A stretch of DNA of 28,637 nt from Candidatus Heimdallarchaeota archaeon. GTDB lineage: Archaea; Asgardarchaeota; Heimdallarchaeia; Heimdallarchaeales; Heimdallarchaeaceae. Of the stretch, positions 17,118 through 23,022 are shown in pieces; the stretch's first letter is position 1; the number at the start of each line of letters is the position of its first letter. Location: contig JAEOTE010000072.1 of NCBI GenBank assembly GCA_016839945.1, positions 1-28,637 of the forward strand, read 5' to 3'. The position numbers were made by a program, and so were the translations under genes. The notes under the pieces were generated by a model. That model was not told where the DNA came from. It saw only the letters and a list, made by a program, of their open reading frames with translations, and did not search any database.

Positions 17118-17162
17118 AAGAATGTCAAACAATTAATAAATCTTCAAGAATTGAGAGAGAAA

Positions 17163-17816
17163 ATGAAAATTAAATTTCCTAATAATTTAGAAGATGCTAG
17201 AAAATTACAAAAGTCATTAGCAAGCAAAGCTATAATCAAAGACACATTTACTAAAATTTCAACGATTTGTGCTCTTGATGTGGCCTATGAAGACACAATA
17301 GGACACGTTGCAGGAGTTGTTGTTGATGTTGACAAAAATAAAGTTATTGAGAAAAAAGTATATTCAGGTGAAATACCAGTTCCATATATTCCTACATTTC
17401 TCTTTTTAAGAGAAGTACCATTTTTCCTCAAACTTCTTCCTAAATTATCAACCTCTCCTGATTTATTTTTAATTGATGGTCATGGTATTGCTCATCCATT
17501 TTTTGCAGGATCTGCAACCATATTTGGTGTTATAGTTGATAAGCCAGCTATTGGTGTTGCTAAAAAGCCTTTACGAGGATTCAAAGATATAAAGAGTGAA
17601 AAAGTAGATTATAGTTATATAAGCATAAAAGACAAAGTTGTAGGGATAAAATACAGTGTAAAGGAGACTTGGAAACCAATATATATTTCTCCAGGTAACA
17701 GATGCTCTGTTGATACTTCCTTTGAAATCATTAAGAAACATTTGTCAACAAAACGGAAAATACCTTTACCACTCCATCTTGCTCACATAACTGCAGCAGA
17801 TGCAAAAAATCAATAA
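17163..17816 (+). CDS. nfi: Endonuclease V
   Basis: ALDVAY, PYIPTFLFLRE, LIDGHGIAHP, IGVAKK and PIYISPG motifs. Confidence 0.93.
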   Translation: MKIKFPNNLEDARKLQKSLASKAIIKDTFTKISTICALDVAYEDTIGHVAGVVVDVDKNKVIEKKVYSGEIPVPYIPTFLFLREVPFFLKLLPKLSTSPDLFLIDGHGIAHPFFAGSATIFGVIVDKPAIGVAKKPLRGFKDIKSEKVDYSYISIKDKVVGIKYSVKETWKPIYISPGNRCSVDTSFEIIKKHLSTKRKIPLPLHLAHITAADAKNQ

Positions 17817-18282: not shown

Positions 18283-18537
18283 ATGATATTTGTGGCTATA
18301 GCTCTTGAAAATCCCGAAATAAAACAAGATCTTGTAACAGGATTACCTCCAAGTGCAATCACCATATATAAGATTGTTATTGGAAAGGGACCTATAACAA
18401 GTAGAGAAATTGTAGAATTATGTAATTTAGCTCCAAGAACAGTTCGACATGGATTAAAACTTCTAGTAAGAGCTGGTTTAATTCAAAAGTTACCTCATCT
18501 CCTCGACATGAGGTCATGTAAGTTTTATGTGGATTAA
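18283..18537 (+). CDS. Small winged-helix transcriptional regulator (MarR/ArsR-like archaeal family)
   Basis: LPPSAITIYK...GPIT...LAPRTVRHGLKLL...GLI...DMR, matching the archaeal LPPSAK...RTVRYAL...DAR family. Confidence 0.85.
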   Translation: MIFVAIALENPEIKQDLVTGLPPSAITIYKIVIGKGPITSREIVELCNLAPRTVRHGLKLLVRAGLIQKLPHLLDMRSCKFYVD

Positions 18538-18578: not shown

Positions 18579-20879
18579 TTAGACTTCCACATCACTTGAG
18601 TGGAAGAGTACATCTCTATTTATAGCAGCTTTAAATAATTGTAGTAGTAAATCATTAGTAGTTCTGACAGCTATTGGAATTTCTTCTGCTGTAAGAAAGG
18701 CAAAAATGGCTTCTTGATTGCCATCAAGTATTCCACAATACACATCTCTTTTATCATAATGTTTCATTTTCAAACCAGTAAATCGATCTTGAAGAGGTCT
18801 TAACACTGTTTGATGTTTACTCTTCTCAAAATAAGAAACTAAAGTGACTCGTTGAGCTTTGGTATACTGCATCATTTCTTTTAGTAGTTCTTCATCAAGA
18901 TCAGGTGTAACAAGTAATAATTCGTATTTAGACCTCATTGCAATATCTGTGATACTTGCTTTGATTGCTTCCTCTCCAACAATTATTGATGTATTGTGTT
19001 GTCCTTCAAAAGCATATGATGATGAAGCTCTATCTATTTGTCTTAATTCATCTTCTCTTGTATTAATAACTTGATAGAAGGTCATTGCTTTTTCCATCAA
19101 AGAATCAAGTTGTAAAACAAGAAGTTCATCTACATCCTTAACTACTGACGCTACTTGTGAAACCAATGTATTAATTTGGATTTCTTCTCCTTCTGTTACT
19201 TGTTGTACTATTTGATCCTTTTGTTCATCTTTATAATCCTTCAAATGTTGTTTTGCATTGGTTAATCCTTGAGCAAACTCATCGTTTTTCAAATTAACTT
19301 TGTCCTTGAATTGCACCACTGAGTTTTGTAGTTTTTCTTTCAAATCCAAAGCCATTTTTTCTGAATCTTGTTTTGATTTACTCAATTCTTTTATTGTATC
19401 ATCTTGGAGTTTTTGGAGTACTTGAGATTGTTCAACTGTATAGGTTGAAAATCCCTTTAATGCTTCTTCTTTTGATGAAGTAAGTTGAGAAGATATTGTT
19501 TGTTTTAGCTCTTCAGTTACATTTGAGCAAGAATCATAAGCGGAAGTTGCATATTTTTCTGTTTGATCTTGAAGTAATTCCAATATATTTGTTGGAAGTA
19601 AATCTATTTGTTCAATAGCTACGTCTGTAAGTTGATTTTTCTTTGTTCTTATCGATGTTTCTCCACTAAGTTGGAAATGATCTAATTTTGATCTAATTTG
19701 GTCTCTTACTTCATTTAATGTTAATACATGTTGATCAATTAGCTGTAAACCACTTTCATTAAGATCATTTGCCAGATTTCTTACAGTATCTCTGGCATCT
19801 GTCAAAGGTGATTCAATTTGTTTTCTTGCTTTTCCTAATTTCATAACAGTAGAGGTTTCTATAGCGTTTAGAGCTTCAGCTATCTTTGAAGACAGAAAAT
19901 TTGTTTGTCTATCTATTTGTTCCACACTTCTACGCAATTCTTGTGTTTGCTTTATTTGTTCTGAAAATAGATTATTTACATCTTGAGTCAGAGAATCTAT
20001 AATATTTTTGGATTCATTTGTCCAAGCAGCATATGCTTCTTGCCAAACCTTGTTAAAATTGTCTGAAAATGATTCTTGAATTTCAGTTACATTGGTAATT
20101 AATTCCTTTAATTCATTATCTAAATCAGGAGCTAAATTCGTCAAGTATTCTTTGTGATTTTCAGTATGAGCATCAAGACTGTTAGAAATAACTTGTATTA
20201 AGGAGTCGAATGTTTGTTGAATTTTCTGATCCATTGAACCTAAAATTTGTTCACTTTTTTGTTTAGAAGAATGATTAAATTGTTTGATAAATGCATTAAG
20301 TTCTTGAACATAATTTTCTAATTGAGCGGAAAAAACTAATGGTTGATCCATTATCTTTGTTAAATATCCCTCAACTTCATCTCTTATTCCTTCGATAAAA
20401 TTACTTGCTGAACCCTCAGTTTCATCAACATATTCAACATAGTTCTGATAAAGTGCATCAACTACTTGTTTTATTAATCCACTTACTACATGAATATCAA
20501 AAACATGTCCCTCTCCTGTAAGTTCAAGGGTTCCACCAAACTTTGATTTCTTATCTTGATATTCCGCTTTTGCAGTTTTAAGAGCAGTTATTGTTCCATC
20601 TAGAGAATATAAAGCATCCTTTTCAATAACTATGTATTCCTTAAGGAAAGGTAACAATCCAAAATATACAGGAGTACGACCAGCTGTTTTCTTTAAGAAA
20701 CCAAGTTCTTCTAAATTTTTAACAGATTGAATTAAAGTCAATGGATCTAAACCTGTTACAACTAGGAGCTCTCCTATTGTTACTTTTCCAAGTCCTAAGG
20801 TAGCAGAATAAACTTTGATATCAATTTCATTAAAACCTATACGTGTTAGTAGAGGAGGGAGAATATCTATTTTCGACAT
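18579..20879 (-). CDS. TrmB-like wHTH + long alpha-helical rod + C-terminal TrmB/PLD-like domain protein
   Basis: N-terminus GFNEIDIKVYSATLGLGKVT...LEELGFLKKTAGRTPVYFGLLP; several hundred Q/E/K/L/S-rich helical residues; C-terminus IVGEEAIKASITDIAMRSKYELLLVTP...GILDGNQEAIF...AVRTTN. Start at 20879 or 20888 is more plausible than 20984. Confidence 0.8.
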   Translation of the reverse strand: MSKIDILPPLLTRIGFNEIDIKVYSATLGLGKVTIGELLVVTGLDPLTLIQSVKNLEELGFLKKTAGRTPVYFGLLPFLKEYIVIEKDALYSLDGTITALKTAKAEYQDKKSKFGGTLELTGEGHVFDIHVVSGLIKQVVDALYQNYVEYVDETEGSASNFIEGIRDEVEGYLTKIMDQPLVFSAQLENYVQELNAFIKQFNHSSKQKSEQILGSMDQKIQQTFDSLIQVISNSLDAHTENHKEYLTNLAPDLDNELKELITNVTEIQESFSDNFNKVWQEAYAAWTNESKNIIDSLTQDVNNLFSEQIKQTQELRRSVEQIDRQTNFLSSKIAEALNAIETSTVMKLGKARKQIESPLTDARDTVRNLANDLNESGLQLIDQHVLTLNEVRDQIRSKLDHFQLSGETSIRTKKNQLTDVAIEQIDLLPTNILELLQDQTEKYATSAYDSCSNVTEELKQTISSQLTSSKEEALKGFSTYTVEQSQVLQKLQDDTIKELSKSKQDSEKMALDLKEKLQNSVVQFKDKVNLKNDEFAQGLTNAKQHLKDYKDEQKDQIVQQVTEGEEIQINTLVSQVASVVKDVDELLVLQLDSLMEKAMTFYQVINTREDELRQIDRASSSYAFEGQHNTSIIVGEEAIKASITDIAMRSKYELLLVTPDLDEELLKEMMQYTKAQRVTLVSYFEKSKHQTVLRPLQDRFTGLKMKHYDKRDVYCGILDGNQEAIFAFLTAEEIPIAVRTTNDLLLQLFKAAINRDVLFHSSDVEV

Positions 20880-21008
20880 ATTATTCATCCAACATTTTTT
20901 GCTTTTGATAACTAGGTATTTGTTTAATAAATAAGTCTTATTACAATATAAAAATAATTTAATATCCTTAAAAAGAATATACAAAAGGCAATAAACAGTA
21001 ACTAAAAT

Positions 21009-21659
21009 CTAGTTGTCTTCAACTCCTTTTCGAGGACATAAAAGGTTTAAGAAGCATTTATCACATTTAGGTTTTTGAGCTTTACAAATAGATCTACCAT
21101 GCGATATTAGTAGATGGGTGATTCGGCCCCATTTCTCTGTTGGGATTATCTTCATCAAATCTTGCTCAATTTTTATAGGATTTTTATTCTTAGTTAAACC
21201 TAAACGAAAAGAGATTCTCTTTACATGTGTATCTACCGCTATGCCTTCATGAATGTTAAACCAATCGTTTAGGAGTACGTTTGCAGTTTTTCTACCAATT
21301 CCAGGTAATTTTGTTAACTCTTCAATTGTTTTAGGAACCGTAGAATCATAATTTTCGATTAACTTGATTGACATCTCCTTGATGAATTTAGCCTTGTTTC
21401 TATACAAACCTACTTTAGCAATTGCTTCTTCAATGTCTTCTAGTTTTGCTGAAGCAAATGATTCTATTTTTGGATAACGGCTGAAAAGATCCTTTGTAAT
21501 AGAATTAACTTGTTTGTCAGTACTTTGTGCGCTTAAAACCGCAGCAACTAGTAATTGAAAAGGAGATGAATAGTTTTGAAGACCTCCTCGAAACTCAGGA
21601 TAATTACTTTCTAGTAGCGCTAGAATTTCATTGGTTTTTCCCTTATCTCCTTTGGTCAT
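21009..21659 (-). CDS. nth: Endonuclease III (HhH-GPD glycosylase with 4Fe-4S cluster)
   Basis: FQLLVAAVLSAQSTD, LPGIGRKTAN, AVDTHVKR and CKAQKPKCDKCFLNLLC motifs. Confidence 0.96.
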   Translation of the reverse strand: MTKGDKGKTNEILALLESNYPEFRGGLQNYSSPFQLLVAAVLSAQSTDKQVNSITKDLFSRYPKIESFASAKLEDIEEAIAKVGLYRNKAKFIKEMSIKLIENYDSTVPKTIEELTKLPGIGRKTANVLLNDWFNIHEGIAVDTHVKRISFRLGLTKNKNPIKIEQDLMKIIPTEKWGRITHLLISHGRSICKAQKPKCDKCFLNLLCPRKGVEDN

Positions 21660-22452: not shown

Positions 22453-23022
22453 ATGGCAGCAGGACAAAGAAAAATATTCAAAATAACTTTGCTAGGAGAT
22501 GGAGCTGTAGGAAAAACTTCGTTAAGGAAGACTTACTTAGGGGAAGGATTCAAAGACGGATACTCTATGACAATAGGTGCTGATTTTGCAGTAAAAAGAC
22601 TTCGAATTGATGATCAGGACTTTGTTGCACAAATTTGGGATCTTGCAGGTCAGCAAAGATTTTCTGCTGTTCGTGAGGTTTATTATCGTGGGACATCTGG
22701 ATGTTTGCTTGTTTTCGATATTTCACGAAGATCGAGCTTTGAGAATATTCCTTCTTGGATCGCAGAACTTCTCAAGAATAATAGTAATAGAGTAGTTCCA
22801 ATTGTGTTAATTGGTAATAAATCCGATTTACGCGCTACAGCTAAAGATCCAATAATGCGAGAACAATCTGAAGAATATGCACGTTCTCTTTCACAGTGGT
22901 CTGGTTTTTCAGTTCCTTATATTGAAACTTCTGCTAAAACTGGTGAAAATGTAGATGAAGCCTTCAAAACTTTACTGAAAAACATAGTACTATTCTATGA
23001 AAAACTCTACGCCCAACAATAA
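22453..23022 (+). CDS. Rab-like small GTPase (Ras superfamily)
   Basis: G1 GDGAVGKT, G2 TIGADF, G3 WDLAGQ, G4 NKSD, G5 ETSAK; RabF-like motifs; no C-terminal Cys. Confidence 0.95.
   Translation: MAAGQRKIFKITLLGDGAVGKTSLRKTYLGEGFKDGYSMTIGADFAVKRLRIDDQDFVAQIWDLAGQQRFSAVREVYYRGTSGCLLVFDISRRSSFENIPSWIAELLKNNSNRVVPIVLIGNKSDLRATAKDPIMREQSEEYARSLSQWSGFSVPYIETSAKTGENVDEAFKTLLKNIVLFYEKLYAQQ

Follow-up and report, generated by a model that had tools for sequence, protein, structure and literature searches.

Among the described relatives of the protein that we analysed here, the closest in structure is TrmBL2 (TK0471/PF0496 of the Thermococcales; PDB 5bpd, 5bpi, 5box, and 5bqt), an abundant chromatin protein that coats DNA (PMC4877046, PMC3031468). 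As a dimer or tetramer it covers DNA non-specifically in a stiff filament. TrmBL2 has about 260 residues, arranged as an extended winged helix-turn-helix (wHTH), an amphipathic helix of about 50 residues, and a PLD-like domain, and the amphipathic helix promotes dimer formation (PMC4877046). In TrmB and TrmBL1 the effector sugar is bound by an additional C-terminal domain, and TrmBL2 lacks it (PMC4877046). The window, that is, the whole stretch of 28,637 nucleotides of a Heimdallarchaeota contig that was analysed, encodes a protein of 766 residues (hereafter the rod protein) with the same order of parts and, like TrmBL2, without the extra sugar-binding domain. However, the helix of the rod protein extends over about 545 residues and doubles back as a jointed hairpin, 40 nm long and basic at its tip, and the sequence identity of the protein to TrmBL2 is only 12-15%. 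An earlier note on this DNA had observed TrmB-type wHTH and PLD-like domains separated by a long helical region with an 11-residue (hendecad) repeat. Our analysis confirms this observation, and there is strong support for describing the protein as a TrmBL2-type head whose inter-domain amphipathic helix has expanded to about 545 residues.

The gene lies on the minus strand of the window at positions 18579-20879 (766 codons and a stop), and translation of this open reading frame gives a protein beginning with MSKIDILPP. A TTG codon further upstream would extend the frame to 20984, but all 20 close homologues, which are 47-96% identical to the rod protein, have lengths of 762-767 aa, and we therefore consider the upstream start to be unused. 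The protein is laid out as a wHTH (residues 1-76), about 545 helical residues (77-621), and a PLD-like domain (622-766), and its AlphaFold2 (AF2) model has a pTM of 0.32 and a mean pLDDT of 76. A query with this single protein found one copy of the gene in the source genome. Short natural relatives of about 350-365 aa also exist.

The N-terminal wHTH of TrmB type that characterizes the TrmB family is present in the rod protein (residues 1-76; 20652-20879, minus strand). The Pfam profile PF01978, which TrmB of Pyrococcus furiosus (3qph, 2f5t) also matches, covers residues 11-72 with 24.5 bits, 1.1 bits below the gathering cut-off of 25.6, and it was found in 43 of 45 family members at E <= 0.001 (best E 1.3e-11). 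In the AF2 model, residues 3-76 resemble the wHTH domains of RPC62, MecI/BlaI, and TFE-alpha (Z 10-11, rmsd 1.7-2.1), so that profile and fold both bear out the earlier assignment, and the net charge of the domain is only +1. At the other end of the protein, a helix (residues 579-621; 19017-19145, minus strand) leads into an alpha/beta PLD-like domain of TrmB/TrmBL2 type (residues 622-766; 18582-19016, minus strand). Foldseek placed TrmBL2 at ranks 1-4 (E 8e-8), with TrmB also among the top matches. Structure alignment by VIA of residues 573-765 of the model to TrmBL2 chain 69-264 gave Z 13.3-13.9 (13.7 for 5box_A). In this alignment, residues 579-621 are the equivalent of the amphipathic dimerisation helix of TrmBL2. 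Superposition on the C-terminal domain alone (626-766) gave Z 16.5 with an rmsd of 2.6 over 130 residues for TrmB 2f5t_X, Z 16.3 with an rmsd of 2.7 over 133 residues for TrmB 3qph_A (chain residues 107-243), and Z 13.9 for TrmBL2 5bpi_C, and the PLD fold was also recovered through the PLD nucleases NucT (6ehi, Z 13.8), Nuc (1byr, Z 12.1), and Zucchini (Z 10.2-10.7).

The catalytic motif of the superfamily, HxK(x)4D(x)6GSxN, is absent, and the earlier note had already recognized that HxKxxxxD is missing: a regular-expression search of the rod protein found neither HxKxxxxD nor GSxN, and only a degenerate HYDKRD at residue 707. The end of the chain (residue 766) aligns to residue 243 of the 335-342 residues of TrmB, and since the structural alignment stops there, the effector-sugar subdomain of TrmB and TrmBL1 is missing. 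Thus, TrmB has a sugar subdomain that the rod protein does not have, while the hairpin of the rod protein is a giant insertion with respect to TrmB. The earlier proposal that this is not a simple sugar regulator holds in this respect, the subdomain being absent as in TrmBL2. Sequence profiles place the protein at a distance from TrmB as well, the NCBIfam TrmB equivalog scoring 12.7 bits against a cut-off of 600, and NCBIfam scans of the whole protein, the C-terminal domain, and the N-terminal domain gave no meaningful match.

The helical region between these domains has a strong hendecad periodicity. When Kyte-Doolittle hydrophobicity along residues 100-640 is Fourier-transformed, the strongest period is 3.66 residues (z = 36 against shuffles), with a power that none of 300 shuffles reaches, while the power at the heptad period of 3.5 over the same residues is at background (z = -0.1). 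The Fourier check that had been suggested for this region thus favours the hendecad over the heptad. Sub-windows of 120 residues starting at positions 100 to 460 each peak at 3.62-3.72, and 0 of 300 shuffles reach any of these peaks; the peak at 3.66 is weak in 520-639, where 14% of shuffles reach it, and a peak of this type is absent from 580-699. The phase shifts by no more than about one residue between residues 113 and 600, so that nearly a single phase is kept for about 490 residues, and distant relatives likewise peak at 3.62-3.70. In the register table the hendecad core consists of positions a, d, e, and h. Large hydrophobic residues make up 38-63% of register positions 1, 4, 5, and 8 and 46% of position 0, compared to 4-27% of positions 2, 3, 6, 7, 9, and 10. 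The segment LKQTISSQL, from which the repeat had been read by eye, starts at residue 458, and every residue listed for it was located as described: the series L458-S469-Y480-L491-S502-L513-F524-F535-L546-I557 is one column of the 11-residue register table, and L466-F477-L488-L499-A510-V521 is another. Hendecad coiled coils have been described before, among them tetrabrachion and the E-G peripheral stalk of A/V-type ATPases. Both of these are formed by parallel, separate chains and are much shorter, whereas the rod protein is intramolecular and antiparallel, with about 24 hendecads per arm. The ATPase stalk and the rod protein share the 11/3 periodicity, which gives straight or slightly right-handed stiff rods (PMC3293630, PMC6131620).

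The earlier proposal for the helical region was one continuous rod or filament, roughly 550 residues long. Our results do not agree with this, and there is strong support for a chain that runs outward for roughly 270 residues, reverses direction at residue 347, and returns antiparallel, so that the a-d-e-h repeat builds an almost straight arm about 40 nm long. The AF2 model has helices at 77-114, 129-177, 179-342, and 349-566, with a break at 343-348 and with helices 129-342 and 349-566 of equal length on both sides of the turn, and its pLDDT falls below 50 at 114-131 and 564-578. On the outward path (all features on the minus strand), the parts are a proximal helix seen in the model (77-114; 20538-20651), whose mirror partner lies at about 580-617, a conserved Gly-rich joint within the first low-confidence stretch (115-128; 20496-20537), and arm 1 of the distal hairpin (129-342, 214 residues; 19854-20495). 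The tip (343-354; 19818-19853) is placed by the AF2 break, the mirror centre, and the site of indels, and it is followed by arm 2 (355-563; 19191-19817), drawn like arm 1 from the AF2 helix and the hendecad register, and by the joint in arm 2 (564-578; 19146-19190), the mirror partner of 114-131. The two low-confidence stretches mirror each other exactly (114+580 = 131+563 = 694). Both joints contain residues that do not vary: across 21 homologues, arm 1 keeps F114, G115, L118, F127, D128, I129, and H130, and in the homologue alignment arm 2 keeps E565, Q568, Q575, A577, and V579. There is strong support for placing the Gly-rich joint about 5 nm from the head, with an acidic distal shaft of 32 nm beyond it. 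A metal site between the two arms, formed by H238, H242, and C451, is possible.

Homologues give further evidence for the hairpin. Conservation along the chain has a mirror centre at residue 347 (r 0.82 over 262 pairs, residues 80-618; the next peak is 0.33), and only 1 of 500 phase-randomised surrogates reaches this correlation, which remained centred on 347 with the proximal helices kept in the test. The most conserved part of the rod is residues 300-415, near the tip. Among 21 homologues (47-96% identity), indels in the rod occur only at 339-358, and one of them is exactly 11 residues long. In f14, a Loki-type family whose loci were taken by coordinates from the phylum-wide search, forms of 831-857 aa differ from forms of 757-766 aa by equal insertions at residues 175 and 520 (+40/+40 or +44/+44), which are symmetric about the tip at 349. 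Outside the Heimdallarchaeaceae set, the mirror test covered families f14, f5, f6, and f23 (3-16 sequences each) and was ambiguous: a local peak at about 350-360 is present in f14, f5, and f6, but off-centre peaks from fewer pairs are higher, and for these clades we therefore rely on the paired insertions. A MAFFT alignment of relatives with 17-21% identity contains many rod indels of 4, 7, 11, and 14 residues and is unreliable for reading paired indels. We reject the single extended rod because the AF2 model, the mirror conservation, the indels restricted to the tip, and the paired insertions in f14 all agree, and as the helical region is a fold-back hairpin, its physical length is about 40 nm rather than about 80 nm.

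Helices that coat lipids were also suggested as a comparison. In this reading, the helical region would lie flat on a lipid surface in the manner of an apolipoprotein, perilipin, or LEA protein; we consider it together with a parallel coiled coil stretched out over about 80 nm as one rod, and both are very improbable. The period of 11 residues is what these proteins would have in common with the rod protein, apolipoproteins A-I, A-IV, and E being built on amphipathic 11/22-mers. There are weak matches to Pfam Apolipoprotein and ApoLp-III, and a profile search of PDB sequences returned only weak apolipoprotein matches (apoA-I, A-IV, and E chains at E 7e-4 to 0.1) and designed bundles. However, the score for Apolipoprotein (PF01442) is 27.6 bits against a gathering threshold of 90, and we attribute all of these matches to periodicity and composition. 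The arms are acidic, with a net charge of -29 together (-19 in arm 1), and their K and R residues are not concentrated at the boundary between the polar and apolar faces, unlike the class-A charge pattern of apolipoproteins. Equal paired insertions and mirror conservation moreover require that the arms pack on each other, so that the comparison with lipid-coating helices is not upheld.

The topology of the rod protein is instead that of the long antiparallel hairpins of methyl-accepting chemotaxis proteins (MCPs) and the arms of SMC proteins. When known hairpins are aligned to the model, residue 345 is the centre of symmetry, as seen for 3g67_A (residues 235-454), 2ch7_B (164-527), and the Smc arm of 5xg2 (225-464), and the PrgA hairpin also aligns symmetrically. 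The MCP hairpins (2ch7, 3g67) resemble the rod protein in having their most conserved part at the tip, paired indels, and a Gly-containing joint. MCPs are, however, transmembrane sensors with a heptad repeat, whereas the rod protein has a soluble head of DNA-binding type and a hendecad repeat, and it did not match the MCP signalling domain (PF00015) in Pfam at E <= 0.01. Their likeness is topological and homology is unsupported, as Z 11-12 at an rmsd of 7-20 is in the generic range for helical rods. The arms of SMC, Rad50, and MukB (P. yayanosii Smc, 5xg2; Smc5/6, 8i4x) share with the rod protein a DNA-associated head, an antiparallel arm that folds back over tens of nanometres, an apex, and an elbow-like discontinuity, but they have an ABC ATPase head, a hinge or zinc hook, and an interrupted heptad. 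None of these is a feature of the rod protein, in which the hendecad is continuous, Pfam and NCBIfam scans detected no ABC-type ATPase domain, and the ends are the wHTH and the PLD-like domain.

The tip carries the motif VMKLGKARK. There is strong support for describing it as a patch that is strongly basic, unlike any other part of the rod, and flanked by hydrophobic residues. No other 11-residue window of the protein is as basic as residues 344-354 (charge +4, compared to a rod mean of -0.66 per window), although several relatives have their most basic window in another part of the rod. In f14 the sequence at the same place is FFWMGKKKKYK, and tips that are basic or aromatic and contain Gly occupy the corresponding place in f14, f23, f22, f12, and f5; in the clade of the rod protein the tip, though basic, has only mild hydrophobicity (V, M/L, L). 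One alternative is a chromatin filament or a bridge between DNA duplexes, in which the heads would coat or bind DNA as TrmBL2 does, while the arms would either reach a second duplex with their basic tips or make up an acidic brush around the DNA that spaces chromatin segments. In favour of it, DNA is as conceivable a ligand of a basic tip as lipid is, and the closest structural relative coats DNA. The near-universal presence in the phylum, with a single copy here by the single-protein query, is what would be expected of a housekeeping architectural protein. We nevertheless regard this alternative as doubtful, as aromatic-basic tips such as that of f14 are generally more similar to membrane-interface motifs than to binders of duplex DNA. 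TrmBL2 itself did not cross-bridge DNA in tweezers experiments (PMC4877046).

In the reading that we prefer, the rod protein acts as a DNA-anchored architectural tether or spacer of fixed length, in which a TrmBL2-type head carries a hendecad arm that folds back on itself and measures about 40 nm; we give this reading a probability of about 0.5. If it behaves like TrmB and TrmBL2, the head would dimerise through the helix that precedes the C-terminal domain, and the dimer would bind DNA with its paired winged helices. The two arms would probably pack into a four-helix rod; a predicted homodimer of the rod (residues 129-566, two copies) scored 0.04 against a mark of 0.42, a prediction in which the fold of the partner was itself uncertain. 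The conserved tip may then touch an anionic surface at a fixed distance from the DNA, most likely a membrane, or alternatively a second segment of DNA or a protein partner. We infer that such a protein would serve as a tether or spacer of set length rather than as a sugar regulator or another regulator controlled by a ligand. Against this reading weigh the low net charge of the wHTH, the higher off-centre peaks of the mirror test outside the Heimdallarchaeaceae set, the mild hydrophobicity of the tip in this clade, the relatives whose most basic window is not at the tip, the lack of a conserved membrane-protein or chromosome-partition neighbour at the loci compared, and the pTM of 0.32 and mean pLDDT of 76 of the AF2 model. 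The structural or tethering role that had been proposed earlier is thus plausible, given a length that stays at about 757-770 aa in most Asgard families sampled and a basic-hydrophobic tip on an acidic rod, while the filament form that went with it is not retained. The length of the rigid arm is kept nearly constant, and where it differs, both arms differ alike, as is characteristic of a molecular ruler or tether.

In Heimdallarchaeia, a neighbouring Rab-like small GTPase may control or receive the tether. The candidate partner in the window (22453-23022, plus strand; Pfam Ras, 166.7 bits) is 93% identical to the copy immediately upstream of the rod gene of H. aukensis, and this identity is kept between genera whose rod proteins are only 48% identical. 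The orthologue adjoins the rod gene in the Heimdall families f1 and f5, in the latter of which it lies 0.5-0.8 kb away and is divergently transcribed in 5/5 genomes; the f5 copy and that of the window are reciprocal best hits among 15-36 paralogues. In a third family (f2) the distance is 5-6.5 kb in 3/3 genomes. In f4, f6, and f22, on the other hand, the orthologue is not linked to the rod gene, and at E <= 1e-45 it was not found in the genomes tested from f14, f23, and f12, which do have the rod protein. Comparison of gene neighbourhoods thus partly supports the earlier suggestion that the rod protein is an effector of the GTPase, namely in the three families with linkage and not in the others. 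At another locus, an Arf/Ras gene at a distance of 5.5 kb from the rod gene is only 38% identical to the GTPase of the window and is probably a paralogue. The two genes downstream of the f5 rod gene show no similarity to the dead-KaiC and coiled-coil-wHTH genes of the window. None of the loci compared had a membrane-protein or chromosome-partition gene as a conserved neighbour of the rod gene. Although the GTPase gene adjoins the rod gene in both f1 and f5, its other neighbours differ between them.

The same GTPase evidence would also suit a regulator that transmits signals, with an MCP-like hairpin whose tip meets a partner, in Heimdallarchaeia the GTP form of the Rab-like GTPase, and whose arm and Gly-rich joint pass the signal on so as to alter DNA binding by the head, or else a tether recruited by the GTPase in the manner of a Rab effector. 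The evolutionary signature of MCP hairpins is seen here in the conserved stretch around the tip, the symmetric paired indels, and the Gly-rich joint, and conservation of the GTPase beside a much more divergent rod protein points in the same direction. We still find this account unlikely: the rod family is phylum-wide, yet at the threshold given above the GTPase orthologue was not found in the genomes tested from three families and is unlinked in three others, the adjacency may be inherited synteny, and the rod protein has a hendecad repeat and no match to the MCP signalling domain.

A bolder form of the tether reading, which we think rather improbable, is that of a near-universal Asgard tether of about 40 nm, with the TrmBL2-type head on the chromosome, the basic, greasy tip on the membrane, and a dedicated Rab-like GTPase in Heimdallarchaeia, the lineage nearest to eukaryotes. 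If true, it would be a prokaryotic tether between chromatin and membrane that employs the principle of a small GTPase plus a long coiled-coil effector, as in the golgins and EEA1 of eukaryotes, and a possible forerunner of the attachment of chromatin to the envelope. The spatial organisation of DNA in the prokaryotes most closely related to eukaryotes is poorly understood, and a tip that binds either the membrane or a Rab-like GTPase would provide a simple, testable system in Asgard archaea for chromosome-membrane attachment or for coiled-coil tethering under GTPase control. Both of these roles bear on the origins of the nucleus and of membrane trafficking. Apart from this, the structural biology and design of coiled coils may take an interest in the protein as a natural case, unusually clean, of a long antiparallel rod with a hendecad repeat.

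What is new here is a giant hendecad hairpin of fixed length inserted into a known head of TrmB/TrmBL2 type, a design that is unannotated and Asgard-wide. The literature on TrmB or winged-helix proteins with coiled coils in Asgard archaea, and on hendecads in archaea, did not describe this architecture (most subscription journals were outside our coverage), and database labels of the family are only "hypothetical" or "HTH domain-containing". A profile search of a word-indexed protein collection added only unrelated coiled-coil proteins (SbcC-like and tape-measure-like), and the relatives with a named taxon all belong to Asgard lineages. A match to the family was present in 299 of the 301 genomes that we sampled from the Asgard phylum, with full-length frames of about 757-770 aa in most of the families sampled.

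The rod gene (18579-20879, minus strand, in a window of 31% G+C) encodes a 766-aa protein beginning MSKIDILPP, named for the long helical region that separates an N-terminal TrmB-type wHTH from a C-terminal PLD-like domain. We place its start at 20879 because 20 close homologues are all 762-767 aa long and share the same initial Met; for an in-frame TTG at 20984, which would add 35 residues, the same comparison (20/20) led to its rejection. Named close relatives belong to the Heimdallarchaeota (Heimdallarchaeaceae, Ca. Heimdallarchaeum aukensis, endolithica) and are labelled "hypothetical protein" in the database. The Pfam TrmB winged helix model matches residues 11-72 at 24.5 bits, slightly below the 25.6 cut-off, and detects 43 of the 45 family members (best E 1.3e-11), while the C-terminal domain received no name from sequence searches against Pfam, NCBIfam, and a PDB sequence profile. 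An AlphaFold2 model made with a 45-sequence alignment (mean pLDDT 76) has an alpha/beta domain at 630-766, and Foldseek ranked TrmBL2 (5bpd, 5bpi, 5box, 5bqt) first for this model, followed by TrmB and PLD-fold nucleases. Structural alignment with VIA gave Z 16.5 (rmsd 2.6 over 130 residues) against 2f5t, a structure of the TrmB sugar-binding domain, 16.3 against residues 107-243 of full-length TrmB, and 13.9 against TrmBL2. The effector sugars of TrmB and TrmBL1 are handled by an extra C-terminal domain, which TrmBL2 lacks (PMC4877046). As the C-terminus of the rod protein aligns at TrmB residue 243, where the chain stops, it lacks this domain as TrmBL2 does. Neither an HxKxxxxD nor a GSxN motif was found in the protein. 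The two domains are thus as read in the earlier note, a TrmB wHTH and a PLD-like domain without HxKxxxxD. The protein's closest known relative is TrmBL2, a chromatin protein, and not TrmB, a sugar regulator; one reading, which we consider improbable, is that the rod protein is itself a DNA-bridging or brush-forming chromatin protein.

The earlier note had also described an 11-residue periodicity in the segment starting LKQTISSQL. This segment begins at residue 458, every listed residue is in place, and the two series are two columns of an 11-residue table. Fourier analysis of Kyte-Doolittle hydrophobicity over residues 100-640 gave a single dominant peak at 3.66 residues, 36 standard deviations over shuffles and reached by none of 300, with power at the heptad value of 3.5 at background, and the repeat is thus hendecad rather than heptad. 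All 120-residue sub-windows starting from 100 to 460 peak at 3.62-3.72, and the last window of the rod (520-639) has a weak peak at 3.66. Between residue 113 and about 600, the local phase of the 11/3 component drifts by no more than about one residue step, which leaves the register almost without a break for roughly 45 hendecads. In the 21 homologues, large hydrophobic residues occupy positions a, d, e, and h, with Asp, Glu, Ser, Thr, Asn, and Gln abundant in the arms. More distant relatives (17-28% identity) share a peak at 3.62-3.70. The hendecad observation is confirmed, and far more strongly than a first reading could have known.

The same note took the rod to be a single extended element of some 550 residues, which was not borne out by four independent checks, namely structural alignment, mirror conservation, indels in close homologues, and paired insertions in another of the phylum's families (the Loki-type f14; 20 orthologues). 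The AlphaFold2 model has helices at 77-114, 129-342 (with one kink), 349-566, and 572-621, of which the two long ones are 214 and 218 residues, with low-confidence breaks at 114-131, 343-348, and 564-578. Whole hairpin structures align to it symmetrically about residue 345: the soluble chemoreceptor of T. maritima (3g67; model 235-454, 212 of its 213 residues aligned), the Smc arm of P. yayanosii (5xg2; 225-464), an MCP (2ch7; 164-527), PrgA (86-625), and Smc5/6 (77-617). Residues i and c-i should share similar evolutionary rates if they pack together, and when the smoothed conservation profile of the 21 homologues is compared with its mirror image, the correlation is r = 0.82 about centre 347 (262 pairs over 80-618); the second-best centre reaches 0.33, and one of 500 phase-randomised surrogate profiles gets 0.82 at any centre. 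Rod indels in close homologues (47-96% identity) occur only at 339-358: one sequence lacks 11 residues there, and two others have indels of 3+1 residues. In f14, a pair of equally long insertions, +40/+40 or +44/+44, sets the 831-857-aa forms apart from those of 757-766 aa; the pair lies at reference positions 175 and 520, symmetric about a tip at 349 that itself has a 4-residue indel. Paired insertions of this type define the length classes of chemoreceptor hairpins, and their match in f14 would be hard to explain unless both arms pack together. The inserted lengths (loci L022, L023, L024, and L027) correspond to 11 helical turns or exactly four hendecads, so shifts between length classes seem to come in steps that leave the hydrophobic seam in register. 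A long hendecad repeat would also be compatible with an apolipoprotein-like helix coating lipid or with a parallel, extended rod, but the evidence for folding back makes either very unlikely. The rod protein is a member of the TrmB/TrmBL2 family with a giant hairpin insertion.

Between head and tip the arm thus spans about 270 residues, a length of some 40 nm. The two outer low-confidence stretches mirror one another (114 + 580 and 131 + 563 both equal 694) and both contain invariant residues in the homologue alignment; we read them as a conserved Gly-rich joint, between a 5-nm proximal segment and a 32-nm distal shaft. Invariant in 21 Heimdallarchaeaceae homologues are also H238, N241, and H242 of arm 1 (20154-20168, minus strand) and S450 and C451 of arm 2 (19527-19532, minus strand), which should oppose one another across the hairpin because their positions sum to about 693. 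About 15 nm from the tip, they may form a metal site of the His/His/Cys type or a lock between the arms; the set is partly kept in the relatives P0054 and P0043 and is not phylum-wide.

The arms carry net charges of -19 and -10 (-38 for the whole protein). No other 11-residue window in the protein is as basic as the one exactly at the turn (344-354, VMKLGKARK; +4), which is conserved within the clade. At this place the f14 orthologues carry GFFWMGKKKKYK, and basic, hydrophobic, Gly-containing tips occur at the same relative position in families f23, f22, and f12 and in one f5 sequence, while in several other relatives the most basic window is elsewhere. Within the rod, conservation is highest in the 100 residues around the tip (about 300-415). 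We are highly confident of the overall architecture, in which a TrmBL2-type head carries a nearly straight hendecad arm that folds back and has a fixed length, with a conserved joint, an acidic shaft, and a basic tip. TrmB and TrmBL2 dimerise via the helix before the C-domain, and their paired winged helices bind DNA (PMC4877046); by analogy, the head would dimerise through the equivalent helix and set paired winged helices on DNA. The wide a-d-e-h face suggests that the arms of the dimer may form a four-helix rod, and the charge and composition of the tip suggest that it would bind an anionic surface, either membrane or nucleic acid. Because of these features of head, arm, joint, shaft, and tip, together with the proposed dimer, DNA, and tip steps, we favour a fixed-length tether or spacer linking DNA to another surface, at roughly even odds (about 0.5). 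A literature search found no description of a TrmB-headed, fold-back hendecad rod.

A rival reading is a regulator that signals from tip to head, or an effector of the nearby GTPase as the earlier note suggested. In Heimdallarchaeaceae the syntenic neighbourhood comprises Rpb7, Spt4, roadblock, dead-KaiC, EndoIII, a Rab-like GTPase, the rod gene, and a small wHTH gene; synteny within this family says little taken alone, and neighbours are unrelated at more distant loci. In f5, where BLASTP recognises the rod protein through its wHTH only and the neighbours otherwise differ, the gene most similar to the window's Rab-like GTPase is found 0.5-0.8 kb from the rod gene, in divergent orientation, in 5/5 genomes, each with 24-36 GTPase paralogues, and is its reciprocal best hit. 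In 3/3 f2 genomes, 5-6.5 kb separate the orthologue from the rod gene. In f4, f6, and f22 the two genes are on different contigs, and no orthologue was found at E <= 1e-45 in f14, f23, and f12 genomes with the rod protein. The link is real and confined to part of one class, so a lineage-specific partnership is possible while the GTPase cannot explain the family as a whole, and we consider the signalling or effector reading unlikely relative to a tether or spacer. The Rab-like GTPase itself (22453-23022, plus strand) shares 93% identity with the orthologue from Ca. Heimdallarchaeum aukensis, across two genera whose adjacent rod proteins are at 48%, and is, by sequence comparison, under unusually strong constraint; the window's genome has at least 15 GTPase paralogues at E <= 1e-20.

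The small wHTH gene (18283-18537, plus strand; 84 aa, HTH_24/HTH_20, ArsR-like) is convergent with the rod gene, whose 3' end is 41 nt away, and a homologous HTH_20 gene adjoins the rod gene in locus L002 and is one gene distant in L001. Genes for endonuclease III (21009-21659, minus strand; HhH-GPD, Fe-S motif) and endonuclease V (17151-17816, plus strand) flank the rod gene; both recur in L002, while in L001 EndoIII recurs and no EndoV gene was called. This flanking by DNA-repair genes probably reflects synteny rather than function. At two distant loci the rod gene has very large ORFs nearby for which Pfam gave no hit (L004:1210-4437, 1,075 aa; L006:1-4381, >1,600 aa).

The family profile matches 299 of 301 sampled genomes of the Asgard phylum, and an exhaustive phmmer scan of 1.84 billion representatives returned only 58 relatives. 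Of 20 clusters queried, the 12 named by taxon were all Asgard (Heimdall-, Hod-, Kari-, Njord-, Hermod-, Borr-, and Promethearchaeota). Full-length frames are about 757-770 aa in most families, with further discrete classes that are shorter (about 676 aa) or longer (831-857 aa). A single-protein query found one copy in the window's genome, and f6 genomes have a second, shorter paralogue, an open frame of 650-675 aa whose match to the profile is limited to positions of about 292-707 (genome:contig G119:C4:27008-28180, G235:C39:147334-148530, G259:C1:67072-68268, and others).
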